A DNA stretch of 57,407 bases from Thermoanaerobaculia bacterium (lineage in GTDB: Bacteria; Acidobacteriota; Thermoanaerobaculia; Gp7-AA8). Shown one piece after another: positions 8,413 through 53,867 of the stretch. The stretch covers positions 1-57,407 of the forward strand of contig DATLFC010000126.1 of the NCBI GenBank assembly GCA_035525015.1, in the 5' to 3' direction. Within the stretch, counting starts at the first letter, position 1. Each line of letters begins with the position of its first letter. The position numbers and the translations under genes were made by a program. The notes under the pieces are model-generated. The model made no database searches, was not told the DNA's origin, and was given only the letters and a program-made list of their open reading frames with translations.

Positions 8413-9420
8413 TTGCACGAGTTTATACTACGCGGCTTGACATCTTCAAGCGAAGCCGCCGGTGCCACCACACTCCCCGTTGACCTCGACCAGATCCGAG
8501 CCGCGGCCGCACGGATCGCCCCTCACGTCCACCGGACGCCGCTCCTGTCGAGCCGCACACTTTCGGAACGTGCCGGCGTCGAGATCCGCCTCAAGTGCGA
8601 AAACCTGCAGCGGGCCGGCTCTTTCAAAATTCGCGGCGCGCTGAACGCGCTCCTGCAGCTCACCCCCGAGGAGCGGCAGCGGGGCGTCGTCGCCTTCTCC
8701 TCCGGCAACCACGCCCAGGGCGTCGCCCTGGCGGCGAAGCTCCTCGGAACCAGGGCGACCATCGTGATGCCGGAGAACTCCGTCGCCTCGAAGGTCGCCG
8801 CGACCCGTGGCTACGGCGCGGAGGTCGTGCAGGGCGGGGTGACGGCGGCGACGCGCGATACCGTGGCGCGCGAGATCGCCGCGAAGACCGGCGCGGCGGT
8901 CGTTCCACCGTTCGACGACGAGCGGATCATCGCCGGCGCCGGGACCGTCGGGCTGGAGATCGTCGAGGAATGGCCCGACGTCAATTCGATCGTCGTGCCG
9001 CTCGGCGGAGGCGGACTGCTGGCTGGGATTGCCGTCGCAGCCACGACGCTCCGGCCGTCGATCACGGTCTACGGGGTGGAACCGGCCGCCGGGAACGACG
9101 GCGAGCAATCGTTTCGCGCCGGCCGCATCATCACGATCGACCCGCCGGAGACGATCGCCGACGGCGCACGCACGCTGGCCATCGGCCGGCGCAACTTCGC
9201 GATCATCCGCGAGCGCGTGGAGGACGTGGTCAGCGTCGATGACGACGTCCTGCTCGAGGCGTTGCAGTTCGCGATGTACCGGACGAAGCTGGTCATCGAG
9301 CCGACCGGCGCTCTGGGACTGGCGGGATTGTTTGCCGGAAAGATCAAGCCGCGGGCACCGGTGGCTGTTGTTGTTTCGGGAGGGAACCTGGATTTCAGTC
9401 TGCTCACGCGATTGAATTGA
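8413..9420 (+). CDS. PLP-dependent threonine/serine dehydratase or serine-racemase-like enzyme (fold type II, no regulatory domain)
   Basis: RTPLL...LKCENLQRAGSFKIRGALN (PLP lysine motif)...AFSSGNHAQGVA...VPLGGGGLLAG. TTG start in track; true start uncertain. Stop TGA 9418-9420 lies inside the first heptamer repeats. Confidence 0.8.
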   Translation: MHEFILRGLTSSSEAAGATTLPVDLDQIRAAAARIAPHVHRTPLLSSRTLSERAGVEIRLKCENLQRAGSFKIRGALNALLQLTPEERQRGVVAFSSGNHAQGVALAAKLLGTRATIVMPENSVASKVAATRGYGAEVVQGGVTAATRDTVAREIAAKTGAAVVPPFDDERIIAGAGTVGLEIVEEWPDVNSIVVPLGGGGLLAGIAVAATTLRPSITVYGVEPAAGNDGEQSFRAGRIITIDPPETIADGARTLAIGRRNFAIIRERVEDVVSVDDDVLLEALQFAMYRTKLVIEPTGALGLAGLFAGKIKPRAPVAVVVSGGNLDFSLLTRLN

Positions 9421-9481
9421 GAATTGAGAATTGAGAATTGAGAATCTCGAGTCTCAATTCTCAATTCTCAATTCTCAATTC
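9414..9481. repeat. inverted heptamer-array hairpin: (GAATTGA)x4+GAATCTC / (TCAATTC)x4
   Basis: Read directly from the sequence. It fills the whole gap between the dehydratase stop (inside the left arm) and the rarA ATG 9484 (a degenerate last unit TCTCATG). Confidence 0.95.
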
Positions 9482-9483
9482 TC

Positions 9484-10809
9484 ATGACCGGCCATCTCTT
9501 CGGCGAACCGCCCCCACCTCCAGACACCCCGCGTCCGGACTCTCCTCTGGCCGAGCGGTTGCGGCCTCGGAGTCTCGACGAGGTGGTCGGCCTCGAGGAG
9601 CTGCTGGCGCCGGGACGCTTCCTCCGCAACGCGATCGAATCGGACCGCATCCCGTCCATGATCTTCTGGGGCCCGCCCGGGTCGGGAAAAACGACGCTGG
9701 CGCGGATCATCGCAAAGACGACACAGGCCCGCTTCGTCCCCTTCTCCGCGACGAGCAGCTCCATCAAGGACATCAGGATGCTGATGGAGGAGGCGCGGAA
9801 GGGGCGGCAGGCGCGCGGATCGAAGACGATCGTCTTCATCGACGAGATCCACCGTTTCAACAAGGCGCAGCAGGACGCGTTTCTGCCGTACGTCGAGGCG
9901 GGGGACATCGTCCTTATCGGCGCGACGACCGAGAACCCATCCTTTGAAGTGAACTCGGCGCTGCTGTCGAGAACCAAGGTCGTGGTCATTCCACCGCTCG
10001 ACCGCGAGCAGGTGGTGACGATTCTCCGCCGCGCTCTCACCGAACCGGCGGTGCAGCAGCACGGCGTGGCGCTGACCGAAGCCGCCGTCGACTTCATCGC
10101 CGCCACGTCGGCGGGCGACGCGCGCCAGGCCCTCACCAGCCTGCAACTCGTCATCGAGACGGCACCCCCCGGCGGTGCCGCCATCGATGTCGAGGGGCTC
10201 CAGGCAATCCTCCAGCGGCGATCGCTGATGTACGACAAATCGGGCGACGAGCACTTCAACATCATCTCCGCCCTCCACAAGTCGATTCGAAACGGTGATG
10301 CCGACGCATCGGTCTACTGGCTCGTCCGGATGCTCGAAGGGGGAGAGGATCCCCTCTACATCACACGCCGGCTCGTCCGCGCCGCGTCGGAGGACGTCGG
10401 AAACGCCGATCCACAGGCACTCGTGCTGGCCGTCTCGGTCAAGGAGGCGGTGCACTTCATCGGAATGCCGGAGGCGGGAGTGGCGCTGGCGCAGCTCGTG
10501 GCGTATCTCGCCGCGGCGCCGAAGTCCAACGCCGCCTACGCCGGATACGGCGAAGCGGTCCGCGAGGTCCGTCAGGGCGACAACCCACCCGTCCCTCTTC
10601 CCATCCGCAATGCCCCGACCCGCCTCATGCAGGACCTGGGGTACGGCCGCGGCTACCAGTACGCCCACGACCACGAGGATCAGACCGCGGCCATGGACTG
10701 TCTTCCCGATTCGCTGCGCGGCCGGAGGTTTTATGAGCCGAAGGATGTGGGGGTTGAGGCGGAGATTCGGGAACGGCTGGAGCGGATGAGGAAGGCGCGA
10801 GATGGATAG
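9484..10809 (+). CDS. rarA: replication-associated recombination protein A (AAA+ ATPase)
   Basis: FWGPPGSGKTTLARIIA Walker A, IVFIDEIHRFNK Walker B, GATTENPSFEVNSALLSR, C-terminal MgsA domain (YDKSGDEHFNIISALHKSIRNGD). Confidence 0.9.
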   Translation: MTGHLFGEPPPPPDTPRPDSPLAERLRPRSLDEVVGLEELLAPGRFLRNAIESDRIPSMIFWGPPGSGKTTLARIIAKTTQARFVPFSATSSSIKDIRMLMEEARKGRQARGSKTIVFIDEIHRFNKAQQDAFLPYVEAGDIVLIGATTENPSFEVNSALLSRTKVVVIPPLDREQVVTILRRALTEPAVQQHGVALTEAAVDFIAATSAGDARQALTSLQLVIETAPPGGAAIDVEGLQAILQRRSLMYDKSGDEHFNIISALHKSIRNGDADASVYWLVRMLEGGEDPLYITRRLVRAASEDVGNADPQALVLAVSVKEAVHFIGMPEAGVALAQLVAYLAAAPKSNAAYAGYGEAVREVRQGDNPPVPLPIRNAPTRLMQDLGYGRGYQYAHDHEDQTAAMDCLPDSLRGRRFYEPKDVGVEAEIRERLERMRKARDG

Positions 10810-10817
10810 TTGTTCAG

Positions 10818-11204
10818 CTACCTCACCCCGACCATCACCACATCCTCACTCTCGTCCCCCCGGTGAATCCGAATGGCGAACCGCTCCTCCCCCGCCTCGA
10901 GGATGTCGGCCGGATAGCGGTACCCCTCTTCGATCACGGCCAGGCCGCCCGCCGCGAAGTGCCAGCGGCCGAGCCGGGGCGTTGTGGCGCCGGGCGGCGT
11001 GATGAGGAGTGTGTTGTCGGAGAGAAACACGTAGTAGGTGCCGACGGCGATGTCCTTCGCCTCGACGACGCGCCAGACGCGGTTCAGGAACGATGGTGGC
11101 TCGGGCCGGGGAGCCGGCGCACCGCGGCGGCCCCCGCCGAACATGCCGCAGCCGGCGACGAGAAGGAGCAGAAGCGCGGCGGCGGCAGGGCGGGACAGGG
11201 TCAT
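10818..11204 (-). CDS. small lipoprotein, function unknown
   Basis: Lipobox LLLLLVAGCG. ATGA overlap with the upstream thioesterase gene. Confidence 0.6.
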   Translation of the reverse strand: MTLSRPAAAALLLLLVAGCGMFGGGRRGAPAPRPEPPSFLNRVWRVVEAKDIAVGTYYVFLSDNTLLITPPGATTPRLGRWHFAAGGLAVIEEGYRYPADILEAGEERFAIRIHRGDESEDVVMVGVR

Positions 11205-11617
11205 GCGTCGTCGGCCGTATATGCGTTCGCGGTGCGCTCGATCGGCTTCGGGCGGCGATCCTCGCCGACGTTGACGTAGACGACCTGCGCTTCGGTCACG
11301 AGCACTTTCTTGTCGGGATCGACGCCGCGGATCGCCTCCACGACGACCTTCGTCGTGATCGAGGTCGTGCCGATGCGGATCGTCTCGGTCCAGAAGCTGA
11401 CCAGGTCGCCGACGAAGACCGGCTCGTGAAAGACGACCTTGTCGAGGGAGACGGTGAGCATGAAGCGCAGACCCTGCCGCCGCGCTTCGATCGCGCCGGC
11501 CTGGTCGATGTAGGAGAGGATGACGCCCCCGAAGATCGTGCCGTGCGCATTCGTGTCACGCGGCATCATGAGCACGCGGATGGCGGGCTCGTTCCATCTT
11601 TCAGCGGCCTTCGTCAC
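11201..11617 (-). CDS. acyl-CoA thioesterase (hotdog fold, YciA-like)
   Basis: MPRDTNAHGTIFGGVILSYIDQAG...DKVVFHEPVFVGDLVSF. GTGA overlap with the ppiD stop. Confidence 0.8.
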   Translation of the reverse strand: MTKAAERWNEPAIRVLMMPRDTNAHGTIFGGVILSYIDQAGAIEARRQGLRFMLTVSLDKVVFHEPVFVGDLVSFWTETIRIGTTSITTKVVVEAIRGVDPDKKVLVTEAQVVYVNVGEDRRPKPIERTANAYTADDA

Positions 11618-15114: not shown

Positions 15115-15140
15115 TGCAGTTGCAGTTCATCCCGCAGTTC

Positions 15141-15317
15141 ATCCCGAGCGCTTAGCGAGGGATCATTCCAGCCATAGCCGAAGCTCGTCTCGCGCAGCGC
15201 CGAAAAGCGTCTCGGAATCTCGGGATGATTCTCCGCGAGAGCCCGAGACGTTTCCTGGCGCTTCGCGGGGTCTTCCCCGGCTATGGCTGGACTGATCCCT
15301 CGCTAAGCGCTCGGGAT
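15141..15317. repeat. 177-bp rod-like inverted-repeat element (MITE-like); 40-bp terminal arms contain a diverged REP-like unit
   Basis: 15141-15180 ATCCCGAGCGCTTAGCGAGGGATCATTCCAGCCATAGCCG is the reverse complement of 15278-15317 with 1 mismatch. The interior is also self-complementary (AAGCGTCTCGG 15206-15216 pairs with CCGAGACGTTT 15243-15253). No ORF with coding character. Confidence 0.9.
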
Positions 15318-15380
15318 AGACTGAGCCCCAGGGGCAGACGTTTTGCACCGCGAACTCCGGCTGCGGACCTTCATCATTAG

Positions 15381-16420
<1,040 letters not shown>

Positions 16421-16421
<1 letters not shown>

Positions 16422-16499: not shown

Positions 16500-16536
16500 A
16501 ACTGGTGCGAAATCTGCTGAGGCGCTGGAGTCAGTA

Positions 16537-17894: not shown

Positions 17895-17895
17895 C

Positions 17896-23240: not shown

Positions 23241-23276
23241 AAAAACCGGGGAGCGGCGGGAACCCCGCCGCCCCCC
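23241..23276 (-). terminator. rho-independent terminator at the end of the dcw cluster (after ftsZ)
   Basis: On the minus strand: GGGGGGCGGCGGGG-TT-CCCGCCGCTCCCC followed by GGTTTTT. 12-bp GC stem with one mismatch, then a U-tract. Confidence 0.7.
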
Positions 23277-23347
23277 GAGGAGCAGATGGTCCGGGGTCCC
23301 TCTCCCCCGCACCCAAAGCGCACAGCAGGGGTGCGCCCGTGAGCGAA

Positions 23348-30358: not shown

Positions 30359-31704
30359 GGTTTCCGGCTCCCGGCTCCCGGCTCCCGGCTCCCGGGAAGG
30401 TTCCTCACCAGTTCCTCGAAGTGCTTTCCTCTTTCCTCGAAGTTTCTGTACTGGTCGAAGCTGGCGCAGGCGGGGGAGAGGAGCACGGCCTCGCCTTTTT
30501 TCGCGTTCTTCCGCGCCCACTCCACGGCCCGGGCGAGGTCGCCGGCCTGTACGATTTCCGTCGCTCTCTGCAGCGCCTGGGTGATGCGGGGGGCCGCGTC
30601 GCCGATCGTCAGCACGGTCCGCACGCGCGATGACACGAGGTCGCGCATCCGCTCGAAGTCGCCGCCCTTGTCTTTCCCGCCGAGGATGAGAATCACGCTC
30701 TTCGGTTCGAATCCCTCGACCGATTTCGCCGTCGCGTCGACGTTGGTTCCCTTCGAGTCGTTGATCCAGCGGACGCCGCCGAGCTCGCGCGTGAGCGCCA
30801 TGCGATGCGGCAGCCCGGCGAACGTGCCGAAGGCGATCTGCACGTCGAGGTCGTTCACCCCCGCGGCGCGGGCGGCGAGCCACGCCGCGAGCGCGTTCTC
30901 CACGTTCGGCATGCCCTGCAGCTTCAGCGAAGCGCGCGGGATCCGGCGCGTCTCGTCATCCAGCGTCAGGACGAGGTCATCGCCCTCCAGCCATGCGCCC
31001 TTCTCGAGCCGCTGCGACGCGGCGAACTGCCACACCCGCACCGCGCTGTCGCGCATCACGCTCCGCCGCTCCACCGCGTTGACGATGGCGACGTCGCCCG
31101 CCTGCTGGTTCCCGAAGATCCTGTACTTGGCCGCCGCGTAATGATCGAACGTCGCGTAACGGTCCATGTGATCGGGCGTGACGTTGAGGAGCACGGCCAC
31201 GTTGGCCCGGAACGTCTGCACCGTCTCGAGCTGAAAGGAGGAGAGCTCCAGCACGTACTGCCGCGGCTTCTCGAAATCGATGGCGGCGATGAGCGGATCG
31301 CCGATGTTGCCCGCCACGATCGGCTGCCGGCCCGCCACGCGGAGGATCTCGCCGATGAGCGCCGTGGTGGTCGACTTGCCGTTCGATCCGGTCACGGCGA
31401 TGACGTTCCCCTTCAGATGCTGGAACGCGAGCTCGATCTCCCCCACCACCGGGATGGCCCGCGCTCCCGCCTCGGCCAGCAGCGGAATGCCGGCCGGGAC
31501 GCCGGGGCTGAGGATGATGCGGTCGACGTCGTCGAGCAGCGAGGACTCCTGCGGCCCGAACATCTTCACGACGCGGTCATCGACGTCGTACGGCAGCGAG
31601 GGGGAGGAATTGCTGTCGGAGAGGACGACGCTCTCGCCGCGGCCGGCCAGAAAATTGGCCGCCGCCACACCCGACTTCCCCGCACCCACCACCAGATTTT
31701 TCAT
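30355..31704 (-). CDS. murD: UDP-N-acetylmuramoylalanine--D-glutamate ligase
   Basis: VVGAGKSGVAAANFL, GSNGKSTTT. The C-terminal tail NLPGSREPGAGSRKP is encoded by a heptamer array, and the start codon lies inside another array. Confidence 0.93.
   Translation of the reverse strand: MKNLVVGAGKSGVAAANFLAGRGESVVLSDSNSSPSLPYDVDDRVVKMFGPQESSLLDDVDRIILSPGVPAGIPLLAEAGARAIPVVGEIELAFQHLKGNVIAVTGSNGKSTTTALIGEILRVAGRQPIVAGNIGDPLIAAIDFEKPRQYVLELSSFQLETVQTFRANVAVLLNVTPDHMDRYATFDHYAAAKYRIFGNQQAGDVAIVNAVERRSVMRDSAVRVWQFAASQRLEKGAWLEGDDLVLTLDDETRRIPRASLKLQGMPNVENALAAWLAARAAGVNDLDVQIAFGTFAGLPHRMALTRELGGVRWINDSKGTNVDATAKSVEGFEPKSVILILGGKDKGGDFERMRDLVSSRVRTVLTIGDAAPRITQALQRATEIVQAGDLARAVEWARKNAKKGEAVLLSPACASFDQYRNFEERGKHFEELVRNLPGSREPGAGSRKP
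30364..30396. repeat. one-armed heptamer array (CCGGCTC)x4.7 inside the murD 3' end
   Basis: Read directly from the sequence. No inverted partner nearby. Confidence 0.9.
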
Positions 31705-31728
31705 TTTAGATTTTGGATTTTGGATTTG
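31694..31728. repeat. one-armed AT-rich heptamer array (NGATTTT)x5 spanning the murD start codon and the mraY-murD spacer
   Basis: AGATTTT TCATTTT AGATTTT GGATTTT GGATTTG. The murD ATG is the complement of 31702-31704, within unit 2. Confidence 0.85.
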
Positions 31729-32821: not shown

Positions 32822-34224
32822 TACGACCGCCCTCCCGACGCGTTGGTCGTTGGTCGTTGTTCGTTGGTCGTGAGTGAGGTCACGATCTTGTCGAGGCCGA
32901 TGCCGCGGGAGGCTTTGATGAGGATGAGATCTCCTTCGCGGATGAAATCGCGGAGAAAATCGCCGGCTGCCGCGGCGTCGTCGAAGTGGTGCAGCGTCTT
33001 GTGGCCTGCTTCGCGCGCGCCGTCGAGCAGCGCCGCGGAACGTTTGCCGACGCCGATCACGGCATCGATCTCCTTCGGAACGGCGCGGCCGGCGTCACGG
33101 TGATAGTCGAGCTCCTTCTCGCCGAGCTCGAGCATGTCGCCGATCACGGCGATGCGTCTTCCCTGCACGTCGGCCTGCGTCATCAGCTCGAGAGTCTTCG
33201 TCAGCGCGTACGGGTTGGAATTGTAGGTGTCATCGTAGATCGTGGCGCCCCGCCAGGGAATGATGACGCCGCGGTGATAGGCGGGCTGGATGTCGCGCAC
33301 GCCGCGCTCGATGCCTTCCCACGAGGTGCCGATGGCGCGGTTCGTGGCGATGGCCGCGAGCAGGTTCTCGAGATTGTGCCGTCCCGGAAGCGACAGCTCC
33401 ATCTCGCGCCGCGCTCCCTCGGCCTCGAGCGTGAAGCGTGTGCCCAGAAGACCACGCTCCCGCACCTCGACCGCCCGATATTCCGCGGGGCGCTCGACGC
33501 CGTATGTCTTCTTCGGGCCGCGATGGTCGCTGCTGATGTTCACGACGTGATCGTCGTCGGCGTTGACGATGACCGTTCCGCCGTCACGCAGATTCTCCAG
33601 CAGCTCCCGCTTCGCCTCGGCGATCTTCTCGACCGTCCCGAAGAACTCGATGTGCACCGGGGCGATGTTCGTGTAGACGCCGACATCGGGGCGCGTCAGC
33701 CCCGCCAGCTGCGCGATCTCTCCCTTGTGATTCATCCCCATCTCGGAGACGACCACTTCCGCGTCGTCGGGCGTGTTGTCGATGCAGAGCGGGCAGCCGA
33801 TGAGATTGTTGAAGTTGCCCCACGACTTGAAGGTGCGCCGCTCGGTCGCCGCAAGCGTGGCGATCATCTCCTTGGTCGTGGTCTTGCCGGCCGACCCGGT
33901 GATGCCGATCAGCGTGAAGTCCATCCGCCGGCGGATGGCGCGCGCCAGCATCTGCAGGGCCACGGTCGTGTCGCCGACGCGGACGATCCCTTTCCCTGCC
34001 GGCACATCGCCGGGAACCACGGAAACGACCGCACCGCGCGCGGTCTCCAGTGCCTGCGGAAGGAACTGGTGCCCGTCGAGCCGCTCTCCCCTGATGGCGA
34101 AGAAGACCGAATCAGGCTTGACCTCGCGGCTGTCGATCACGACCGAGTGCGTGACGACGTCGCCCCCCTGGATGACCTGCCCGCCGGTCATGTTGGCGAG
34201 CTCCTGGAAGGTCAGCGTGGGCAT
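32821..34224 (-). CDS. murF: UDP-MurNAc-tripeptide--D-alanyl-D-alanine ligase
   Basis: [14 protein letters not shown], Mur ligase domains. The C-terminal tail [19 protein letters not shown] is encoded by a heptamer array. Confidence 0.93.
32842..32869. repeat. one-armed heptamer array GTTGGTC GTTGGTC GTTGTTC GTTGGTC inside the murF 3' end
   Basis: Read directly from the sequence. Confidence 0.9.
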
Positions 34225-34243
34225 GACGCCCTCCCACCCGACC

Positions 34244-34270
34244 GGGCCTCAGGCCTCGGGCCCGAGGCCC
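34244..34270. repeat. short heptamer palindrome GGGCCTC AGGCCTC GGG/CCC GAGGCCC
   Basis: GGCCTCGGGCCCGAGGCC is an 18-nt perfect palindrome (34252-34269), 20 nt upstream of the murF ATG. Confidence 0.85.
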
Positions 34271-38229: not shown

Positions 38230-38397
38230 GACGGACTGGCGCGAAGCCGGAAAACAAGGGTGAAGATCTGCCTACAAGTACGGCACGAGGAACCATCCAC
38301 ACACGCCCACGCTCCACGCTCCACCCCTCCCGAGCTCCCGTCACCGCACACACACCCGACCCTTCCCCAACCTTCACCCTTGCTTCCGGGCTCCGCA

Positions 38398-39375
38398 CTA
38401 CAACTTCTCTGCGACCCGCAGCTTCGCGCTGCGCGACCGCGGATTCCCTGCGATCTCTTCCTCCGAAGCAGTCACCGGCCTGCCGGTGAGCACGCTCACG
38501 ATCGCCCTCGCCCCGCACCCGCACACCGGCATTCCCGGCGGGCAGGTGCACTCCCCTTCGAGACGGCGGAAGGCCTGTTTGACGATCCGATCCTCGAGCG
38601 AATGAAACGAGATGACGGCGATGCGCGCCCCCTGCTCCAGGACGCTCACGGCGTCGTCGACGAACCGGTCGAGGCCGGCCAGCTCCTCGTTCACGGCGAT
38701 GCGAAGCGCCTGAAACGTGAGCGTGGAAGGATCGATGTCTCCCTTCCTGCCGCGCTTGACGGAACGAATCACGTCCGCCAGTTGCAACGTCGTCTCGATC
38801 GGCGCCTCCTCGCGTGCGGTGACGATGGCACGTGCGATCCGTCGCGCCATCGGCTCCTCGCCGTACTGGCGAAGAATCCGCGCCAGCTCCCGCTCGTCGA
38901 TCGACGCCACCAGATCGGCCGCCGACGGACCTTCGCCCCCCATCCGCATATCGAGCGGAGCATCGTGACGGAATGAAAATCCGCGCCGCGCGTCGTCGAG
39001 CTGCATGGAGGAAACGCCGAGGTCGGCCAGAATCCCGCTGATCGCGTCGATTCCGTGCTGCTTCAGAATGTCAATGAGCGCTTCGTGACGTCCCCTTGCG
39101 AACGTCACCCGTTCGCCGAACGGCCGCAGCCGTTCGCGCGACTTCTCGAGCGCCTCCGCGTCGCGGTCGATCGCCAGGATGCGGAGCCGCGGATGCTTCC
39201 GCAGCAGCGCCTCCGAGTGACCGCCGAGTCCCACCGTCGCGTCGACGATCGTGCCGTCGCCGCGCGATGGGCGGAGGGATTCGAGAATCTCTTGTAAAAG
39301 AACAGGCTCGTGAACCGAACGTTGGTCGTTGGTCGTTGGTCGTTGGTCGTTTCCCACGACTACGACCAACGACAA
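38398..39375 (-). CDS. rsmH: 16S rRNA (cytosine1402-N4)-methyltransferase
   Basis: HEPVLLQEILESL...DATVGLGGHSEALL...FHSLEDRIVK. There is no ATG/GTG/TTG between the conserved HEPVLL and the hairpin, so the start (TTG 39375 or GTG 39357) lies inside the heptamer hairpin. Confidence 0.9.
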   Translation of the reverse strand: MSLVVVVGNDQRPTTNDQRSVHEPVLLQEILESLRPSRGDGTIVDATVGLGGHSEALLRKHPRLRILAIDRDAEALEKSRERLRPFGERVTFARGRHEALIDILKQHGIDAISGILADLGVSSMQLDDARRGFSFRHDAPLDMRMGGEGPSAADLVASIDERELARILRQYGEEPMARRIARAIVTAREEAPIETTLQLADVIRSVKRGRKGDIDPSTLTFQALRIAVNEELAGLDRFVDDAVSVLEQGARIAVISFHSLEDRIVKQAFRRLEGECTCPPGMPVCGCGARAIVSVLTGRPVTASEEEIAGNPRSRSAKLRVAEKL

Positions 39376-39391
39376 ACGACCAACGACAAAC
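39321..39391. repeat. inverted heptamer-array hairpin: (GTTGGTC)x4 / (GACCAAC GACAAAC)x2
   Basis: Read directly from the sequence. It occupies the mraZ-rsmH junction. Confidence 0.95.
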
Positions 39392-39393: not shown

Positions 39394-39846
39394 CTAAACT
39401 CCATGCAGCTCCAGCTCCTTGAAATCCTCATCCGTCATCGGCGACTCATCGAGCCGCTTCTGGATCTTCTGGTCGTTCCAGACGATCAGGTGGTCCTGGT
39501 TTCCGATCACCACCACCTCGCTCTGGATGCCCGCCACCTCGCGGAGGATCGTCGGCACCAGGACGCGTCCCTGGGCATCGATCGCCCCGACCTGGCCGTA
39601 GTAGTTCACCCGTTCCAGCAGCTTCCCCTTTGCCATGGACGTGGAGGGCACCCGTGAGAGCCGCTCCTGAAAGTCGAACCAGACCGGCAGTGGATAGACG
39701 AGCGCGCGCCGGCCGTCGGTGGAAGTGATGAAGCAGTCGCGACCGTATTTCTCTTCAATGATCTTGCGGAAGTTCGCCGGGACCTTCAGACGACCTTTGT
39801 CGTCGATCGTGGCGGGGGCATGCCCCATCAAGACGCTGAGTTCCAC
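39394..39846 (-). CDS. mraZ: transcriptional regulator MraZ
   Basis: Two SpoVT-AbrB-like halves: IDDKGRLKVPANFR and IDAQGRVLVPTILR. GTG 39846, or ATG 39828 as start. Confidence 0.92.
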   Translation of the reverse strand: MELSVLMGHAPATIDDKGRLKVPANFRKIIEEKYGRDCFITSTDGRRALVYPLPVWFDFQERLSRVPSTSMAKGKLLERVNYYGQVGAIDAQGRVLVPTILREVAGIQSEVVVIGNQDHLIVWNDQKIQKRLDESPMTDEDFKELELHGV

Positions 39847-39931: not shown

Positions 39932-39950
39932 AAGAGAGGGAAAAAAAGGC

Positions 39951-40032
39951 AGGCCTCGGGCCTCAGGCCTCGGGCGTTCAATCCGACGGACGACGGCACT
40001 TCCCGAGGCCCGAGGCCCGAGGCCCGAGGCCC
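39951..40032. repeat. inverted heptamer-array hairpin: (RGGCCTC)x3.5 / (GAGGCCC)x4 with 27-nt loop
   Basis: Read directly from the sequence. It lies between the stop of the DUF1232 gene and the mraZ upstream region. Confidence 0.92.
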
Positions 40033-40035
40033 GCT

Positions 40036-40533
40036 TCACTTCACCATCTTCTTCAGCTTCCCCGCCGCATCCTTCCCGACCAGGTTGTCGGCGGCGTGGA
40101 GGGCCCGCTGGATGAGCTCGAGGATGTCGTCGTCGCCGCTCCAGTGCTGGCGGACGATCTCCGGGTCGGTGTCGGTGAGGATCTTGTTGACCAGGTAGAC
40201 GCCGAAGATGAGGTCGTCGATGAAGCCGATCGGACCGAGGAAGAGCTCCGGCACGATGTCGAGAGGAAAGAAGTAATAGGCCACCCCGCTGCCGAGCAGG
40301 ACCTTGTTCGTACCGGAAACACGAGGATCGTTCACCAGCCGCCACAGCAGCATGAACATGTCGGGGACCAGGAGCAGCCAGCCGGTCGAGCGCTCGGCCA
40401 GGTGGCCGCGCGCTTCGGCGTAGGCATGAACGCGATTGCGAAGCCGGTCGTAAAAGCGCCGCGCGCGCTCCTCTTCATTCCTCGGTGACGACGCGCTCGG
40501 CATCTCGGGAGTGGTCGTGGTCGTGGCGCTCAT
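40036..40533 (-). CDS. DUF1232 (YkvA-like) membrane protein
   Basis: LLLVPDMFMLLWRLVNDPRV...AYYFFPLDIVPELFLGPIGFIDDLIF, characteristic of the family. The start may be Met11 (40503). Confidence 0.7.
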   Translation of the reverse strand: MSATTTTTPEMPSASSPRNEEERARRFYDRLRNRVHAYAEARGHLAERSTGWLLLVPDMFMLLWRLVNDPRVSGTNKVLLGSGVAYYFFPLDIVPELFLGPIGFIDDLIFGVYLVNKILTDTDPEIVRQHWSGDDDILELIQRALHAADNLVGKDAAGKLKKMVK

Positions 40534-41011
40534 GAGCTCCTCCAGGGTTCGGCGCGTCGGGCAGGTCGGCCCCTCCTCTGCCGAGGGTGACCGCGAGACC
40601 GCCGTCGATGATCCAGATTTTCTGTACGTCCGCAGTGACGAACGATGGCAAAAATCGATCCAGCGACATCACCAGCGTGGCCGGCGGCTCATACGAGACG
40701 AGCTCCGGCGGCAGGCGGCTGCGAAGAAGACCGACCAGGATCGTCGGCAGAGGGAACCCGGCCGCCGACGCGCCGCGCAGCGGCACGCGCACCGTCGTTC
40801 CGCTGGCATGGATCTCCGTGATGTCGACGGTGAAGGGGACGCTGATGAACTTGCGGATCGATCCTGTGACGCGGAGATGCCCGTTGAGGAACTCGAGCTC
40901 GATCCGCTCGATGGGCTCGGTCTGCCCGATCATCGACCGGACGAGAGCGTTCAATCTCTCGCCGTCGATGCGCACATCAAAAGAGTCCCACTCGACAAAT
41001 CGCCTCGTCAC
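40475..41011 (-). CDS. hypothetical protein
   Basis: 178-aa ORF with ordinary amino-acid composition. GTG start inside a heptamer array. The His/Asp-rich tail overlaps the next gene by 29-59 nt. Confidence 0.5.
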   Translation of the reverse strand: MTRRFVEWDSFDVRIDGERLNALVRSMIGQTEPIERIELEFLNGHLRVTGSIRKFISVPFTVDITEIHASGTTVRVPLRGASAAGFPLPTILVGLLRSRLPPELVSYEPPATLVMSLDRFLPSFVTADVQKIWIIDGGLAVTLGRGGADLPDAPNPGGAHERHDHDHSRDAERVVTEE

Positions 41012-41041
41012 TCGTCACCCGTCACTCGTAACCCGTCCCCC
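41007..41041. repeat. one-armed heptamer array GTCACTC GTCACCC GTCACTC GTAACCC GTCCCCC
   Basis: Read directly from the sequence, in the divergent spacer between the hypothetical gene and carB. Confidence 0.85.
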
Positions 41042-41067
41042 GGTGGCTTATTATGCGCGTCGCTTCC

Positions 41068-45813: not shown

Positions 45814-45827
45814 CGAAGGAGATCTTC

Positions 45828-46076
45828 ATGAAACGGGTGATCACGGTTTTGCTATGCGTCCTTTTTCTGGCCTCGTGCGGCGGCTCGGATGTAACCATCG
45901 AGGATCTGGAGAAGAAGAACGCCGATCTGACGCAGCGGGTGAAGTCGCTGGAAGATCAGCTGCTGGCGGCGGAAAAGAAGCTCATCGTGCACGAGCAGGC
46001 CATGCAGACGCTGAGCTCGCGCCAGCGCGAGATCGAGAATTACTTCAATAAGCTGCAGGCCGGCCAGACGCGCTGA
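45828..46076 (+). CDS. small coiled-coil lipoprotein
   Basis: ATG 45828 preceded by GAAGGAG. Lipobox VLFLASCG. Remainder is heptad-like (DLEKKNADLTQRVKSLEDQLLAAEKKL). Only visible as the tail of track ORF 45051..46076. Confidence 0.65.
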   Translation: MKRVITVLLCVLFLASCGGSDVTIEDLEKKNADLTQRVKSLEDQLLAAEKKLIVHEQAMQTLSSRQREIENYFNKLQAGQTR

Positions 46077-46080
46077 CGCG

Positions 46081-47052
46081 TCAAACGGCGATGGTGATGT
46101 ACGGCTGCGCGCTCGCCAGCTCGGTCTTGAACGCGGTCATCGCCCGGATCGCATACCGGGTGCGCTGCCCCGCCGCGCCGGGCCGCGCCGGTCCGGAGAG
46201 CTGCCGGTGCGGCCTCGCCGTTCCAGGATTGCGCGAGCGGAAGTACTGGTGGGAGAACGGCGACGGCTTGTCGATCTCGATGACGATCTCGTCGACGGTC
46301 ACGTCGGCGCCGCCGACGTAGCGAAAGTCCCATTCGAGGCCCTCGCCGGGACGGAGCTTCACTTCCTCCGGATTGACGCCGATGTAGACGCGGCCGCCTC
46401 CCTGTTCGATGGCCACGCGGATCGGGACCGTCCGCGTCACGAATTCCGTCACATCCTCCGGACGGATCAGACGGTCCGACGACGCTGGTGGCGCCGCGAT
46501 CAGCGACGGTCCCTCTGCGCGCGCCGGGGCCGGGATGAACGACGACGGCCGCGGTTTCTCTCCCTGCCGCAGCCAGGCCGCGACCGGAGCGCCGTCGGAA
46601 TGGATGCGCGGACGCGGACGGCGCGTCCGGGTCTTCTTCGCCTGCACCGGCTTCGGTGCCGGGGGAACATGCGGCGCAACGGGAGCCTTCGTCTTCGCCG
46701 GCGGAACCGCGACGGGGCGCGAAGCGGAGACCTTCTTTGGCTTCGCGAGTTTCGCGGATTTGGCCGGTTTTGCAGACTTTACGGACTTTGCGCGCTTTGC
46801 GGGCTTTGCGGGCTTTGCGGACTTTACGGACTTTGCGGACTTCGTGGTCTTCGTGGTCTTCGTGGTCTTCGCCGGTTTTGCCGGTTTGGCGGGCTTGCGG
46901 GCCGCTTTGCGGGTCACCGCTTTCGCGGCCTTCTTCACCCGCTTCGCAACGACTTTCCTGGCGGCGCGGCCGGCGGATTTCGTTCGCGCGGCGGCTTTCC
47001 TGGTCGTTCGCCGGGCCGCAGCAGCGGCCTTTTTCCCCTGCACTTTCGCCAT
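46081..47052 (-). CDS. histone-H1-like Lys/Ala-rich N-terminal domain fused to an unknown C-terminal domain
   Basis: N-terminal ~110 aa: AKKAAAAARRTTRKAAARTKS...KPAKPAKPAKTTKTTKTTKSAKSVKSAKPAKPAKRAKSVKSAKPAKSAKLAKPKK. Pro-rich linker. C-terminal ~130 aa of ordinary composition (VPIRVAIEQGGGRVYIGVNPEEVKLRPGEGLEWDFRYVGG...). Confidence 0.65.
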   Translation of the reverse strand: MAKVQGKKAAAAARRTTRKAAARTKSAGRAARKVVAKRVKKAAKAVTRKAARKPAKPAKPAKTTKTTKTTKSAKSVKSAKPAKPAKRAKSVKSAKPAKSAKLAKPKKVSASRPVAVPPAKTKAPVAPHVPPAPKPVQAKKTRTRRPRPRIHSDGAPVAAWLRQGEKPRPSSFIPAPARAEGPSLIAAPPASSDRLIRPEDVTEFVTRTVPIRVAIEQGGGRVYIGVNPEEVKLRPGEGLEWDFRYVGGADVTVDEIVIEIDKPSPFSHQYFRSRNPGTARPHRQLSGPARPGAAGQRTRYAIRAMTAFKTELASAQPYITIAV

Positions 47053-47109
47053 TTCGGACCCTTTCCGCCGACGCCCCTGAAAAAAGAATGGCGCAATATA
47101 GCAGAGGTC

Positions 47110-47850
47110 TCAGCCGAAGACGCCGGCAACGCTGAATCCGCCATCCACCGCCAGGCACTGGCCGGTGATGTAGGAAGCGGCCGGCATCGCCAGAAATGCA
47201 ACTGCTGCAGCGACTTCCGACGGTTCTCCGATCCGCCCGGCCGGGGTCCGGGCCACGATCTTCGCCAGCCGCTCGGGATCGCGGAGGACCGGCTCGGCCA
47301 GCGGGGTACGGATGTACCACGGCGCCACGGCATTCACCCGGATGCCGTCGGGAGCCCACTCGGCCGCCAGCGCGCGCGTCATCTGGACGACGGCGGCCTT
47401 GCCCATCGCGTAGGGAGTCCCGGTGCCGAGGTTCCGGAAGGCGGCCACCGACACGACGTTGACGATGGCCGCCTCCCCCGATTGCTTCAGAAGGGGATAG
47501 GCGGCGCGGCACATCGAGAAGGCAGCGTGCTGATTCGTATCGATCAGATGCCGGTACTCCTCGTTCGAGTAGTCCGCGGTCGGCTTCCGGATGTTCGTCC
47601 CGGCGTTGTTGACGAGGATGTCGAGCCTGTCGAGCTTGTCGAGAATCGAAGTGGCATCTCCCGTCACATCTGCCGCGATGGCGCGCGTGCCCGGCCGGTC
47701 GCGCGCCCATGCCTCGAGCCGTTCCCGATTGCGCGCCACGCCAACGACCGACGCACCGTGGCGGATCAGCTCATCCGCGATCGCCAGGCCGATGCCGCTC
47801 GTGCATCCGGTGACGAGCGCGGTTCTGCCGGCGAGCGTCCATGCTGTCAC
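47110..47850 (-). CDS. short-chain dehydrogenase/reductase (tropinone-reductase-like)
   Basis: [27 protein letters not shown] catalytic motif. GTGA overlap with the glmM stop. Confidence 0.85.
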
Positions 47851-50649: not shown

Positions 50650-51434
50650 GCCTCTTCCTTCTCCGCAATGGCGCCGAGGACACTGAGAAAATCGGCCGTG
50701 TCGCGCACGTCGTGCACGCGGACCATGGCCGCGCCGCCGCGGAACGCCGCCGCCACCGCGGCCAGCGATCCGAGACTTCGCTCGGCCCCGGCCGGGCGGC
50801 CGGTCAGGTGGCCGATGAAGGCCTTGCGCGACGCGCCGATCAGCACCGGACCGAGCTCCGCGAACCGCCTGCACCGCGCCAGCAGCTCCAGATTCTGATC
50901 GAAGGTCTTTGCGAACCCGATCCCGGGATCGACGGCGATCTGCGCGGCGTCGATCCCGGCGCCGATGGCCGCCTCGCGGAAGCCGGCCAGCTCGCGCCAC
51001 ACATCCTCGACGACGTCGTCATACTCCGTCATCTGCTGCATCGTGCGCGGCTCGCCGCGCATGTGCATCAGGATGGCCGGCACGCCGCGCTCCGCCACGA
51101 GCGCGCGCATGGCCGGATCGCCGCGCAGCGCCGTGACGTCGTTGACGATGTCCGCACCGGCGTCGAGCGCGGCGGCGGCGACGGCCGCTTTCCGCGTGTC
51201 GATGGAGATGGGAACAGCCGAGCGCCGGCGGATCTGCTCGATCACCGGCACCGTCCGCCCGATCTCCTCGTCCGCACTGACGGCTTCCGCCCCCGGGCGG
51301 GTCGATTCCCCACCGATGTCGATCACCCCCGCGCCGTCCTCCTCCATCTGCAGCGCCGCGTGCACCGCCTTCGACTGGTCGAAATGCACGCCGCCGTCGG
51401 AAAACGAATCGGGAGTGACGTTGAGAATGCCCAT
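50646..51434 (-). CDS. folP: dihydropteroate synthase
   Basis: MGILNVTPDSFSDGG, DIGGESTRPGA. Start set at ATG 51434. The track start at 51560 would add 42 aa (MKDEVEKDEVVKSEAPSSFILHPSSF...) encoded by the heptamer hairpin. No other start codon lies in between, so the true start is unresolved. Confidence 0.85.
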   Translation of the reverse strand: MGILNVTPDSFSDGGVHFDQSKAVHAALQMEEDGAGVIDIGGESTRPGAEAVSADEEIGRTVPVIEQIRRRSAVPISIDTRKAAVAAAALDAGADIVNDVTALRGDPAMRALVAERGVPAILMHMRGEPRTMQQMTEYDDVVEDVWRELAGFREAAIGAGIDAAQIAVDPGIGFAKTFDQNLELLARCRRFAELGPVLIGASRKAFIGHLTGRPAGAERSLGSLAAVAAAFRGGAAMVRVHDVRDTADFLSVLGAIAEKEEA

Positions 51435-51482
51435 GATGCGTGGGGGGCGGGTGAACTGGAGGATGCGAGCCCGTGGCAGACG

Positions 51483-51586
51483 GAAGGATGAAGGATGAAG
51501 GATGAAGGATGAAGGGGCTTCGCTCTTCACGACTTCATCCTTCTCGACTTCATCCTTCATCCTTCATCCTTCATCCTTCATCCTTT
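51483..51586. repeat. inverted heptamer-array hairpin: (GAAGGAT)x4+GAAGGGG / (ATCCTTC)x1 + x5, with internal 14-nt direct repeat CGACTTCATCCTTC
   Basis: Read directly from the sequence. It lies between the murA stop (51586-51588) and folP. Confidence 0.95.
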
Positions 51587-52878
51587 CAAACGTCTCTTTC
51601 CCGCGTGATCCGCGCGCCGAGAGCATTGAGCCGCTCCTCGATTCGCTCGTAGCCGCGGTCGATCTGGTGCACGTTGTGGATGACGCTCTCCCCCTTCGCG
51701 CAGAGCGCGGCCAGGAGCAGGGCCATGCCGGCGCGGATGTCGGGGCTGGAGATCTCGCTGCCGACGAGGCGGTTTCCGCCGACGATGATGGCGCGGTGCG
51801 GGTCGCAGAGGATGATCCGCGCCCCCATGCCGATCAGCTTGTCGGTGAAGAAGAGCCGCGACTCGAACATCTTCTCGAAGATCATCACCGTTCCTTCGGC
51901 CTGCGTGGCGATGATGATCATGATCGACAGGAGATCGGCCGGAAACAGCGGCCAGGGACCGTCGTCGATCTTCGGCACGGCCGCGCCGATGTCGTATCGG
52001 ACCCGCAGCTCCTGCTCGCGCGGCACGCGGATGTTGTTGCCTTCGACGATGAGGTCGACGCCGAGCTTGTTGAGCATGTGCCGAACCGACTGCATGTGAT
52101 GCGGCACCGCGTCCTCGATCACCAGCTCGCTTCGGGTGACGGCGGCCAGCCCGATGTATGACCCCACCTCGATGTGATCGCTCGGGATGTAGAAATCGCC
52201 GCCGCGCAGGGCGTCGACGCCGTGGATGGTGAGCGAATTGGTGCCGATCCCCTCGATGCGGCCGCCCAGCAGATTGAGGAAGGTGCAGAGGTCCTGGACG
52301 TGCGGCTCGGCGGCGGCGTTGTAGATGCCGGTCGTCCCGTTCGCCAGGACGGCGGCCATGGCCGCGTTCTCGGTCGCCGTCACCGACGCTTCGTCGAGAA
52401 ACATGCTTCGTCCGGACAGCGTCTTCGCACTCATCCGGTATTCGTGCGCCGAGACTTCGATCTGCGCCCCGAGCGCCTCCAGCGCCAGCAGGTGCGTGTC
52501 GACGCGGCGCCTCCCGATCGCATCGCCTCCCGGCTTCGCCACGGCGGCCGCTCCGCAGCGCGCCAGCAGCGGCCCCGCCAGAAGGATCGAAGCCCGGATC
52601 TTCTTCGACAGCTCGGGATCGGGAGTCGACGAGCACTCCCCCTTCGTGTGCAGGCGGACGACGTTGTTCTCCAGCCGCTCCACACTCGTGCCGATCCCTT
52701 CGAGGATCTGCAGCATCACCCGGACGTCCTGAATGTCGGGCAGGTTCCGCAGCGTCACCGGCTCGTCGGTGAGCAGACACGCCGCCAGGATCGGCAGCGC
52801 CGCGTTCTTGTTACCGCCCGGCCGGATCGAGCCCTCGAGCCGGCGGCCGCCTTCGACGATGAAGCGTTCCATGGCCAT
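51586..52878 (-). CDS. murA: UDP-N-acetylglucosamine 1-carboxyvinyltransferase
   Basis: GGNKNAALPILAACLLT, EPSP-synthase fold repeats. ATG 52878 or 52872. Confidence 0.95.
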   Translation of the reverse strand: MAMERFIVEGGRRLEGSIRPGGNKNAALPILAACLLTDEPVTLRNLPDIQDVRVMLQILEGIGTSVERLENNVVRLHTKGECSSTPDPELSKKIRASILLAGPLLARCGAAAVAKPGGDAIGRRRVDTHLLALEALGAQIEVSAHEYRMSAKTLSGRSMFLDEASVTATENAAMAAVLANGTTGIYNAAAEPHVQDLCTFLNLLGGRIEGIGTNSLTIHGVDALRGGDFYIPSDHIEVGSYIGLAAVTRSELVIEDAVPHHMQSVRHMLNKLGVDLIVEGNNIRVPREQELRVRYDIGAAVPKIDDGPWPLFPADLLSIMIIIATQAEGTVMIFEKMFESRLFFTDKLIGMGARIILCDPHRAIIVGGNRLVGSEISSPDIRAGMALLLAALCAKGESVIHNVHQIDRGYERIEERLNALGARITRERDV

Positions 52879-52896
52879 TGATGGCGGATTCTATAG

Positions 52897-52980
52897 GTTG
52901 TTCGTTGTTCGTTGTTCGTTGTTCGCGGCGGGTGGGACGAACAACGAACAACGAACAACGAACAACGAACAACGAACAAC
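52897..52980. repeat. inverted heptamer-array hairpin, asymmetric: (GTTGTTC)x4 / (GAACAAC)x6
   Basis: Read directly from the sequence. It lies in the divergent spacer between murA and the MBL-fold gene. Confidence 0.95.
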
Positions 52981-53017
52981 TACTAACCCCGGCCGGTCTG
53001 CCGTATCCTGATCAACG

Positions 53018-53848
53018 ATGATCGTCGCTCCCCTCGGATCCGGAAGCGCCGGCAACTCCTACTACTTCGAGAGCGACGGCACGAGCATCCTCGTCGATGC
53101 CGGATTCGGTCCCCGTGAGACGCGCAAGCGCCTCGAGTCCCTCGGCCGCAGCATCGAGTCGGTGCAGGCCATCGTCGTCACTCACGAGCATTACGATCAC
53201 ATTCGAGGCGCCGAGCGGATCAGCCGCAAGTTCGGCATGCCGATCTACCTCACCCGCGGCACACTCGACGCCAGCCGGATCGACGGCGCCGAGGCGAACG
53301 TCGTCGTCTTCGAGAACAACAGCACCTTCTCCATCGGAGAGCTGAACGTGCACGCCCGCCGCACCGTGCACGATGCCGCCGATCCCGCCTGCTTCGTGGT
53401 CGAAGCGCGCGACGGCACCCGCGTCGGCATTGCCAGCGACCTCGGCTACGTCGACGAAGGAGTTCTCCGCCATCTCAGCGGATGCGACGGCCTCTTCTTC
53501 GAGTCGAATCACGATCTCGACATGCTTCGCCTGGGAACCTACCCCTGGAGCGTGAAGCGGCGGATCATGTCGCGTTTCGGACATCTCTCCAACGACGACT
53601 CCATGACGGCCGTTCAGCGGATGATCGGCGCCGACCTGAAGACGCTCTGCATGATCCATCTCTCGCAGAACAACAACCACGAGTCGATCGTGCGCGACAT
53701 GGCCGCGCGGCTCCTGCAGCGCAACGGCGTACAGCTCGAGCTAGGCATCGCCAGACAGTACGAGCCGACCGGGGTCTTCGAGATCGCCCGGAAACGAGCG
53801 CCCCGCGTGACGCCGGCGACCCGTCATTCCCAGATGCCGCTATTCTGA
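53018..53848 (+). CDS. MBL-fold metallo-hydrolase (YycJ/WalJ-like)
   Basis: SGSAGNSYYFES...ILVDAG...IVVTHEHYDHIRG...HLSQNNN. Confidence 0.8.
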   Translation: MIVAPLGSGSAGNSYYFESDGTSILVDAGFGPRETRKRLESLGRSIESVQAIVVTHEHYDHIRGAERISRKFGMPIYLTRGTLDASRIDGAEANVVVFENNSTFSIGELNVHARRTVHDAADPACFVVEARDGTRVGIASDLGYVDEGVLRHLSGCDGLFFESNHDLDMLRLGTYPWSVKRRIMSRFGHLSNDDSMTAVQRMIGADLKTLCMIHLSQNNNHESIVRDMAARLLQRNGVQLELGIARQYEPTGVFEIARKRAPRVTPATRHSQMPLF

Positions 53849-53867
53849 GGCCCGAGGCCCGAGGCCT
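53847..53867. repeat. one-armed heptamer array (GAGGCCC)x2+GAGGCCT
   Basis: Read directly from the sequence. It overlaps the stop codon of the MBL gene. Confidence 0.8.

Follow-up and report, generated by a model that had tools for sequence, protein, structure and literature searches.

Heptanucleotide repeats and gene-end hairpins in bacteria

Tandem repeats with a 7-nt unit have been noted in bacteria since the work on the STRR (short tandemly repeated repetitive) sequences of cyanobacteria, and later in Xanthomonas, and no origin or function has been accepted for them. In 2007 heptamers were noted to be in excess in bacteria, and slippage of the polymerase was tentatively given as the cause. 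The single conserved unit of the repeats described so far invited explanations based on sequence. Described here are hairpins made of a tandem array of a 7-nt unit followed by an array of its reverse complement, which lie at gene ends in a 57,407-nt stretch of DNA (positions 1-57,407, termed the window) from an uncultured soil acidobacterium of the class Thermoanaerobaculia, phylum Acidobacteriota (65% G+C), and in related genomes. These elements part architecture from sequence. The unit is free, while the period, the ~31-nt arm of four units, the G-first polarity and the site at the stop codon are constant. Thus, sequence-specific explanations are ruled out and a geometric cause is indicated, for which the register of slippage, a ruler-like enzyme or a length optimum of the double-stranded stem are candidates.

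In Xanthomonas, GGGAATC heptamers are 89-93% intergenic, at a mean distance of 28 nt from the end of the upstream open reading frame (ORF); 70-75 of the ~185 arrays per genome are in convergent plus/minus pairs that can form stem-loops, in which the G-rich array comes first (Rehm et al., 2015; PMC4692102). The arrays mostly have four units and have been linked to G-quadruplexes, they vary between related species, divergent spacers are under-used, and the function is unknown (PMC4692102). The Thermoanaerobaculia elements resemble them in the period of 7, the approximately four units, the convergent G-first pairs and the intergenic location near the 3′ end of the upstream ORF. They differ in that Xanthomonas has one consensus, GGGANTN, whereas here there are many unrelated units per genome, with GGG in 11 of 60, and in that the host belongs to another phylum.

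STRR sequences consist of a few conserved units in heterocystous cyanobacteria. They are intergenic 7-bp tandem repeats that form a hairpin in the hupS-hupL spacer, and participation in transcript stability or translational coupling has been proposed, the function being unknown (PMC2670836). Both STRR sequences and the present arrays are heptanucleotide tandem repeats in non-coding DNA and form hairpins between cistrons. In contrast, a strict two-arm form does not define the STRR sequences, the units described here vary by locus and genome in an acidobacterial host, and an analysis of unit families has not been reported for STRR sequences. The direct TAACTGA heptamers of Beggiatoaceae, cyanobacteria and Bacteroidetes are also intergenic, with 2-6 copies at gene boundaries and unknown function, but have one fixed unit, are almost always direct (1 indirect in 170 sets) and lie just upstream of start codons (PMC4679880).

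Repetitive extragenic palindromic (REP) elements, known from enterobacteria and pseudomonads, stabilise upstream mRNA, and affect translation termination when they are near the stop codon. REPINs are introduced in PMC3116915 as extragenic palindromes that are present in many copies and in genome-specific families. The hairpins described here resemble REP elements, bacterial interspersed mosaic elements (BIMEs) and REPINs in being extragenic hairpins behind stop codons with genome-specific families, as far as the 57 kb examined of the source genome are concerned. REP elements, however, consist of a conserved non-periodic sequence with a conserved terminal tetranucleotide and are tied to REP-associated tyrosine transposases (RAYTs), whereas the present elements have periodic arms of free sequence and no known enzyme. 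Mycobacterial interspersed repetitive units (MIRUs) are tandem repeats that fill operon spacers and keep the stop/start relationship; their units measure 40-100 bp, are not inverted and form no hairpins, unlike those described here.

An earlier reading of the window, made from the sequence alone (the sequence-only reading), knew of no description of paired heptamer arrays. The Xanthomonas and cyanobacterial repeats are precedents (PMC4692102; PMC2670836), and the architecture is therefore already known. What is new is the host phylum, a unit whose sequence is free, a period that sometimes changes to 8 while arm length is maintained, the statistic on polarity, and the evidence for within-genome unit families and shared loops, which adds a copy-and-paste component that is undescribed for such repeats. 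A literature search found no link of Acidobacteria or Thermoanaerobaculia with heptanucleotide or tandem repeats and no follow-up to the GGGAATC repeats, and a 2025 survey of short tandem repeats makes no mention of heptamers.

Paired arrays in the window and in related genomes

The sequence-only reading had listed seven paired loci and seven one-armed or short arrays as one family, set by architecture (period 7, an inverted partner and a site at gene ends) with no shared sequence, and this description holds. Period-7 arrays are present on both sides of all seven paired loci, as seen with Tandem Repeats Finder and by direct reading, and the program also found all seven one-armed or short sites (Table 1). 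These arrays are among the 22 period-7 rows of the 63 that it reported for the window. The arms of the paired loci have 3.4-7.4 copies with 85-100% matches and are ~24-53 nt long. Perfect arrays of at least three copies number 0, 0, 0, 12, 0, 2, 0, 0 and 0 at periods 4 to 12, and 100 dinucleotide-preserving shuffles of the window gave 0.0 period-7 arrays; period 7 thus exceeds periods 6 and 8 and the shuffled control, the comparisons that the sequence-only reading had proposed. Heptamer hairpins account for 24 of the 25 longest inverted repeats listed in the window by an inverted-repeat finder, the other being a non-periodic palindrome at 15135-15323. Predicted RNA folds of the seven hairpins have free energies between -43 and -78 kcal/mol, and their z-scores against shuffles range from -4 to -11. 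An Rfam scan of the window showed no family at the gathering score. At least nine different units are present, which range from AT-rich to GC-rich.

The MreB protein of the window is identical or 93-100% identical in ~50 metagenome-assembled genomes (MAGs) labelled Thermoanaerobaculia or Acidobacteriota, and 78-84% identical in ~35 more. The ingroup consists of 88 loci found with MreB (L001-L088) and 12 relatives found via MraW (72-79% identity). The window together with L001-L088 forms the main clade sample (1.5 Mb, about 85 genomes), the MraW-found relatives form a second sample of 134 kb, and 68 unrelated contigs (571 kb) form the outgroup. Of the source genome, only the 57-kb window was examined. 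Exact-protein look-ups of AroA and MgsA for contigs of the same species found no record, and MraW relatives in metagenomes reach 79% identity at most and hence offer no population variants of the window species.

In the main clade sample, arrays of at least three copies number 236 at period 7, compared with 61, 39 and 39 at periods 6, 8 and 9. As to inverted partners, 62 pairs are found among 245 period-7 arrays and none among 72 period-6 arrays, with five pairs at period 8 and one at period 9. The second ingroup sample has five period-7 and four period-8 pairs. The outgroup displays a flat period spectrum and a single pair. The density of pairs is 12 per 100 kb in the window and 3-4 per 100 kb in relatives, where ~40% of loci have at least one pair. 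Period 8 is as frequent as period 7 in the lineages L089, L092, L093 and L097/L098. Within 21 kb, some lineages are devoid of arrays and others have 6-7. The architecture is found in dozens of independent MAGs from different projects. Gene-end hairpin minisatellites are a trait of the whole Thermoanaerobaculia clade.

Position at gene ends

Every copy had been placed exactly at a gene boundary by the sequence-only reading. This is confirmed, as six of the paired copies begin within 6 nt of a stop codon on one strand and the seventh lies between divergent genes; several one-armed arrays, for their part, occupy terminal codons (the murD, murF and murE tails) or the murD start and not spacers. 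Among the 62 hairpins of the main clade sample, 48 have the stop codon of a long ORF with high G+C at third codon positions (GC3) within 25 nt, and mostly within 11 nt, of the outer edge, whereas random placement puts a mean of 2.75 and a maximum of eight near stop codons. As six of the seven window copies and 48 of the 62 clade copies directly follow a stop codon, the elements can be termed gene-3′-end elements.

Approximately 18 of 60 hairpins constitute the entire stop-to-start spacer: no more than 13 nt separate the stop codon from the first arm, and no more than 14 nt separate the second arm from the start codon of the following gene. At the base of such a hairpin, stop and next start are brought together. 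In relatives without a hairpin, matching junctions measure 2-10 nt, as in TAG-CC-ATG for mraZ-mraW.

Constant geometry

The element has a median length of ~84 nt and two arms of ~31 nt, each with about four tandem units of 7 nt, or of 8 nt in some lineages. Four to five copies (4.x) are present in 61 of 120 arms. The mode of arm length is 30-32 nt, with minor peaks at 23-24 and 38 nt; period-8 arms have a secondary peak at 32-35 nt, and arrays of periods 6 and 9 show a plain decay. In 45 hairpins the 5′ arm is the G-rich one, against six in which it is C-rich (p = 2e-8). Because a hairpin reads identically on both strands, G-first is a true polarity of the element. The same polarity is found weakly in non-periodic perfect stems of the clade (105 vs 62). 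The idea that the arms supply stop codons in three frames was also considered and was rejected, as a stop triplet is present in 24 of 62 5′ arms, which is the expectation from base composition.

Unit families within genomes

Units had been thought to be specific to each locus. This does not hold strictly, since GTTGGTC is common to three window loci (23172, 32841 and 39320) and GAGGCCC to three others (34243, 39952 and 53847), and the same holds for relatives. When rotation and reverse complement are allowed, loci at least 700 nt apart have an identical unit in 6.7% of within-genome pairs and in 0.44% of between-genome pairs, i.e., 15 times above background; 19 such within-genome pairs were observed against a maximum of eight in 2,000 permutations. 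The genome is a better predictor of the unit than is the orthologous site (7.5% vs 0.9% identical, with a background of 0.3%). Accordingly, the unit sequence is free, yet each genome has a few unit families at several gene ends.

Loops are shared as well. The L002 hairpins at 8306 and 11032 have the unit and the first ~11 loop bases in common, and in each of L076 and L081 a pair of sites shares its unit as well as the loop TCCGGA. GGCGTGA is the unit at four L079 sites, two of which show the same G:T mismatch in every unit, and the GAAGGCA family is found at different junctions in L028 and L029. From the unit families, sometimes with a common loop, whole hairpins appear to have been moved or copied between gene ends. 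Outside arrays, the unit heptamers are not over-represented as single words. A search of viral contigs for (GTTGGTC)x3 gave four matches, and the three that were read are one-armed arrays in unrelated contexts.

A separate palindrome with conserved sequence, GTGGAG-GACAGGCG..CGCCTGTC..GACAGGCG..CGCCTGTC-CTCCAC, is ~60 nt long and resembles REP elements and miniature inverted-repeat transposable elements (MITEs). It is absent from the window but is scattered among relatives at junctions that differ by genome (Table 1), and shows that hairpin mobilisation occurs in the clade.

As an aside, the idea that the unit derives from the final heptamer of the gene upstream was considered but lacks support as a rule: the relationship is significant only through circular cases in which the stop codon lies inside the array, and otherwise p = 0.3.

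Turnover at orthologous sites

The mreB-mreC junction could be compared in 80 species; in 48 of them the spacer is 60 nt or longer and its fold reaches -25 kcal/mol or lower. Among these strong hairpins, 23 are of period 7, two are of period 8 and the others are non-periodic; most of the remaining species have spacers of ~6-50 nt. The unit differs by species (GGGCTCA, GGTGCTG, GGGGGTC, GGGAGAC, GGCGTGA, GAGGAAA and others), and the leader 3′ of the hairpin is conserved. In the window (16503-16518, +) and at most L001-L051 loci this leader fits the -24/-12 spacing of sigma-54 promoters (TGGY-N8-TGCT, e.g., TGGCGTAAATTCTGCT). Perhaps mreCD has its own promoter here and the hairpin ends a monocistronic mreB transcript.

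At other junctions the units are related. Hairpins between mraZ and mraW have a GGTTG..CAACC core in common, the period being 8 in three lineages and 7 in two, and the junction between the gene for a pyridoxal phosphate (PLP)-dependent enzyme (Pfam PALP family) and mgsA has related AT-rich units in several species (GAATTGA, GAATGTT and AATGCAA).

Species with ~90% nucleotide identity show how fast elements change. L030 and L051 have the unit GAGTCCT in both, with different copy numbers. Another site has a plain terminator in L051 (ACGTAGGGCG-TGG-CGCCCTACGT-TTTT), and in L030 an AGGGCGC/GCGCCCT array hairpin that shares stem sequence with it but has no T tract. In L059 (12429-12515) and L062 (12430-12516), entirely unrelated heptamer hairpins occupy the same spacer, which measures exactly 87 nt in both species. 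Strain pairs with 99.7-99.99% identity, assembled from different samples, have identical arrays throughout. The arrays are thus no artefacts, and no hypermutable contingency loci either; in this they differ from phase-variation repeats. Thus, the element at an orthologous site turns over within ~10% nucleotide divergence and is stable between strains. Comparisons of sites with and without an element revealed no target-site duplication at element edges, a difference from MITEs. At L013 5540-5660, the first arm of an AAATGCA hairpin has on either side a 21-nt sequence from the 3′ end of the gene upstream (GAGCGAATGCGGAAGGCGCGG); this looks like a duplication made as the array arose.

Possible origin and function

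The cautiously favoured explanation, held to be somewhat probable, is that these are REP-like gene-end hairpin minisatellites that are produced by 7-nt slippage together with copying, and that probably act as barriers at mRNA 3′ ends or between cistrons. Arms would lengthen and shorten by slipped-strand mispairing in a 7-nt register, and the bias may be the one behind the excess of heptamer repeats in Xanthomonas and cyanobacteria. Hairpins would be copied or swapped as a whole among gene ends by some route, and the complementarity of the arms would arise at the DNA level and not through selection at the RNA level. When transcribed, the element is predicted to fold right behind the stop codon. 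Like a REP element or BIME, the folded hairpin may block 3′-5′ exonucleases, pause or partly terminate transcription, or offer a site to a double-strand RNase. The outcome would be that the 3′ end of the upstream message is set and neighbouring cistrons are insulated. By analogy with REP elements and BIMEs and with the roles proposed for STRR sequences, we infer that the transcribed hairpin fixes or shields the 3′ end of the message upstream, or else keeps cistrons apart. Where a hairpin fills the spacer, the base of the stem would keep the stop codon and the next start codon adjacent, and translational coupling would therefore survive the insertion.

Several points weigh against this explanation. 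Every RNA role of the hairpins is one that we infer. Stem mismatches on the sense strand comprise 25 G:T (G:U in RNA) and 24 A:C, with no wobble excess; complementarity is thus not visibly kept by selection for RNA pairing. Taken with the ~40% of species that have no mreB-mreC hairpin at all, this suggests that the elements may be dispensable. Simple slippage predicts monotonic lengths and not a peak at four units, and local slippage cannot account for within-genome unit families. The L030/L051 site could represent insertion of a member of an L030 family at a terminator instead of expansion of the terminator. The earlier proposal that the arrays arise by slippage and template switching survives in part: slippage is plausible from the copy-number difference at ~90% identity and from the L030/L051 site, but ongoing switching from arm to arm found no support, as the order of variant units is no more complementary between arms than when shuffled (2 of 57 at p <= 0.05). 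With respect to copying, no conserved ends, target-site duplications or core shared between families were found, and no gene for a RAYT (IS200/IS605-like Y1 transposase) or another copying enzyme is present among the 47 window ORFs scanned.

Other explanations can be compared with the same data. The hairpins may be a functionless by-product of a lineage bias to 7-nt slippage and palindromes, seen only where they are tolerated in short spacers and dispensable gene tails. This is a possible but doubtful explanation. It agrees with the lack of a G:U excess, the ~40% of species without any mreB-mreC hairpin, the complete turnover at ~90% identity, the strand-symmetric orientation and the in-frame insertions or tails in murG, murE and murF. 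The hairpins, however, hug stop codons even in long spacers (the 23172 copy is 6 nt from the guaA stop with 107 nt free before ftsZ), 60% of species have a periodic or non-periodic hairpin at mreB-mreC, where spacers apparently form a short and a long group, arm length is peaked and does not decay, and arrays are invariant between strains. REPIN-like mobility is rather unlikely. Each unit family would be a non-autonomous element spread by a dedicated enzyme, for instance a RAYT or some other nuclease or integrase specific for structure, and period and arm length would mirror how that enzyme handles DNA. Families lack a common terminal motif, target-site duplication or fixed boundary, the window ORFs scanned include no candidate enzyme gene, REP elements have no internal periodicity, and related units persist at orthologous sites (GAATKNN at PALP-mgsA and GGTTG..CAACC at mraZ-mraW). 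Yet mobility of this type would explain unit families 15 times above background, loops that recur from locus to locus, the differing sites of the GAAGGCA family in L028 and L029, the replacement of one hairpin by an unrelated one in a single spacer (L059 vs L062), the sharply peaked arm length, the extragenic site beside stop codons as with REP elements, and the scattered GTGGAG..GACAGGCG.. palindrome. A bolder proposal, which we consider improbable, is a dedicated structure-guided copying machine that writes or transplants hairpins at gene ends in a 7-nt (sometimes 8-nt) step, with ~31-nt arms, G-first and in any sequence. In that case a machine of this kind, and not generic slippage, would also have produced the Xanthomonas and cyanobacterial arrays.

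Ordinary Rho-independent terminators, with stems that happen to be repetitive, are a very unlikely explanation. Hairpins do adjoin stop codons, and L051 has a canonical terminator at the site of the L030 array hairpin. The copy at 39952-40033 has a U7 tract behind its stem on the - strand (A7 at 39941-39947 on +) and is the only one in the window that looks like a full intrinsic terminator. However, a T tract (at least five T in the 6 nt after the stem) follows only three of 60 hairpins, that copy included, and in ~18 of the 60 the start codon of a co-directional gene follows within 14 nt downstream. Canonical intrinsic terminators are moreover in use elsewhere in the genome, e.g., that of ftsZ (23246-23278, -), which has a 15-bp G+C stem followed by T5. 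Accordingly, the earlier statement that the elements are not simply terminators stands on the rarity of T tracts; its original argument from mixed gene orientations is weak, given how many copies directly follow a stop codon. A further idea is that the arrays bind a sequence-specific factor or form G-quadruplexes, as proposed for Xanthomonas GGGAATC; it is suggested by the G-rich first arm and by the approximately four units per arm, which is the G-quadruplex minimum. This highly improbable reading is largely refuted by unit diversity, with at least nine different units from AT-rich to GC-rich in the window, and as GGG occurs in only 11 of 60 units, the preference for four units cannot stem from G-quadruplexes here. 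That the arrays are errors of assembly or sequencing is scarcely conceivable. Only the general concern that repeats can be mis-assembled speaks for it, and against it are the same architecture in dozens of MAGs from different projects and arrays that are base-for-base identical in contigs from different samples; the artefact that the sequence-only reading had allowed for was not borne out.

Individual copies and other repeats nearby

The window includes a division and cell wall (dcw) cluster on the - strand, with mraZ (39394-39846), mraW, a gene for an ftsI-type penicillin-binding protein, murE, murF, mraY, murD, ftsW, murG, murC, ftsQ, ftsA and ftsZ. Further genes are mreBCD with a PBP2-type penicillin-binding protein gene and rodA, guaA, carB, aroA, folP and others. 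The hairpins mark gene ends in an uncultured, abundant soil lineage, and upset the start or stop calls of mraW, murD, murF and folP. The reading frame of mraW (rsmH) crosses the distal arm of the 39320-39391 hairpin, and mraW of the window is without the ATG that relatives have just past the hairpin. On the - strand, the in-frame start candidates are limited to a pair of TTG codons within the first arm, of which one is at 39375, and to a GTG of the loop (39355-39357).

Table 1. Heptamer arrays of the window and copies of the conserved-sequence palindrome in relatives
Feature	Position	Strand	Unit and copies	Fold	Context
Paired hairpin	9414-9445/9452-9484		GAATTGA x4.6 / TCAATTC x4.7	-46 kcal/mol, z -8.4	Whole spacer between PLP-dependent enzyme gene (8413-9420, +) and mgsA/rarA-like AAA+ ATPase gene (9484-10809, +); stop TGA (9418-9420) inside first unit; ATG directly after 3′ arm
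Paired hairpin	16420-16454/16467-16499		GGGCTCA x5 / TGAGCCC x4.7	-78.3 kcal/mol, z -11.3	Begins at mreB stop (TAG 16419-16421); followed by conserved leader, then mreC (16537)
Paired hairpin	23172-23205/23218-23241		alternating GTTGGTC/GTTGGAC x4.9 / GACCAAC x3.4	-43.3 kcal/mol	6 nt past guaA stop; abuts terminator of convergent ftsZ
Paired hairpin	39320-39351/39362-39391		GTTGGTC x4.6 / GACCAAC-GACAAAC x4.3	-49 kcal/mol	3 nt past mraZ stop, - strand
Paired hairpin	39952-39975/40002-40033		RGGCCTC x3.4 / GAGGCCC x4.6	-74.5 kcal/mol	3 nt past stop of DUF1232 gene (40036-40533, -)
Paired hairpin	51483-51515/51533-51585		GAAGGAT x4.7 / ATCCTTC x7.4	-66.7 kcal/mol	1 nt past aroA stop (51586-51588, - strand); likely folP start ~48 nt farther on
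Paired hairpin	52897-52925/52937-52980		GTTGTTC x4.1 / GAACAAC x6.3	-52.8 kcal/mol	Between divergent aroA (start 52878, -) and metallo-beta-lactamase-fold gene (53018, +); only window copy not beside a stop
One-armed array	30364-30396	-	GGGAGCC x4.6		Last ~12 codons of murD; ends 5 nt before ftsW ATG (ATGA overlap); two-armed period-8 hairpins at murD-ftsW junction in L098 and L092
One-armed degenerate array	31694-31728	-	AAAATCY x4.9		Spacer from mraY stop to murD start; murD ATG (31704) in variant unit AAAATGA
One-armed array	32841-32871	-	GACCAAC x4.4		Translated as MurF C-terminal tail, just before TAATG overlap with mraY; GGCAACC x4 at this site in L098
Short palindrome, ~1.5 units per arm	34243-34270		GGGCCTC / GAGGCCC		Covers murE stop codon
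Weak one-armed array	38302-38327		CACGCTC x3.4		Spacer downstream of mraW
One-armed degenerate array	41004-41042		GTCACYC x5		Between divergent unknown gene (40475-41011, -) and carB (41053, +)
One-armed array	53847-53867		GAGGCCC x2.9		Begins within stop (TGA 53846-53848) of metallo-beta-lactamase-fold gene
GTGGAG..CTCCAC palindrome	L004 8193-8260				
GTGGAG..CTCCAC palindrome	L029 10798-10860				
GTGGAG..CTCCAC palindrome	L092 11470-11540				
GTGGAG..CTCCAC palindrome	L092 13519				
GTGGAG..CTCCAC palindrome	L096 1730-1790				

The non-periodic palindrome at 15135-15323 is a 189-nt imperfect structure with 88-nt arms that are 80% complementary. It lies between mreB and the gene upstream, with a 12-nt tandem repeat before it (15122-15146). 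At this site relatives have unrelated hairpins, long in L002 and short in L007. A giant hairpin is present in L031 (16420-16720), where ~12 GGAAACC and 10 GGACATC units are followed by an AT-rich stretch of ~110 nt and then by the complementary array.

Arrays of period 8 and 7 are also found within coding sequence, at L098 20640-20673, L092 20614-20641 and L098 13570-13636. One of these coding arrays is within a conserved region of a murG-like gene, as judged from motifs assigned by eye, and another is an apparent insertion in a murE-like gene relative to a relative. In the window, two adjacent 9-nt tandem arrays (TTTGCGGAC x8.2 and CTTCGTGGT x3.6) lie at 46769-46871 inside a 556-aa ORF (46040-47710, -) with no Pfam match; these would code for three-residue repeats if the ORF is a real gene. 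A 1,193-codon ORF with high GC3 (3037-6618, +) has no Pfam domain and overlaps several long ORFs on the opposite strand, and is regarded as a putative gene only.

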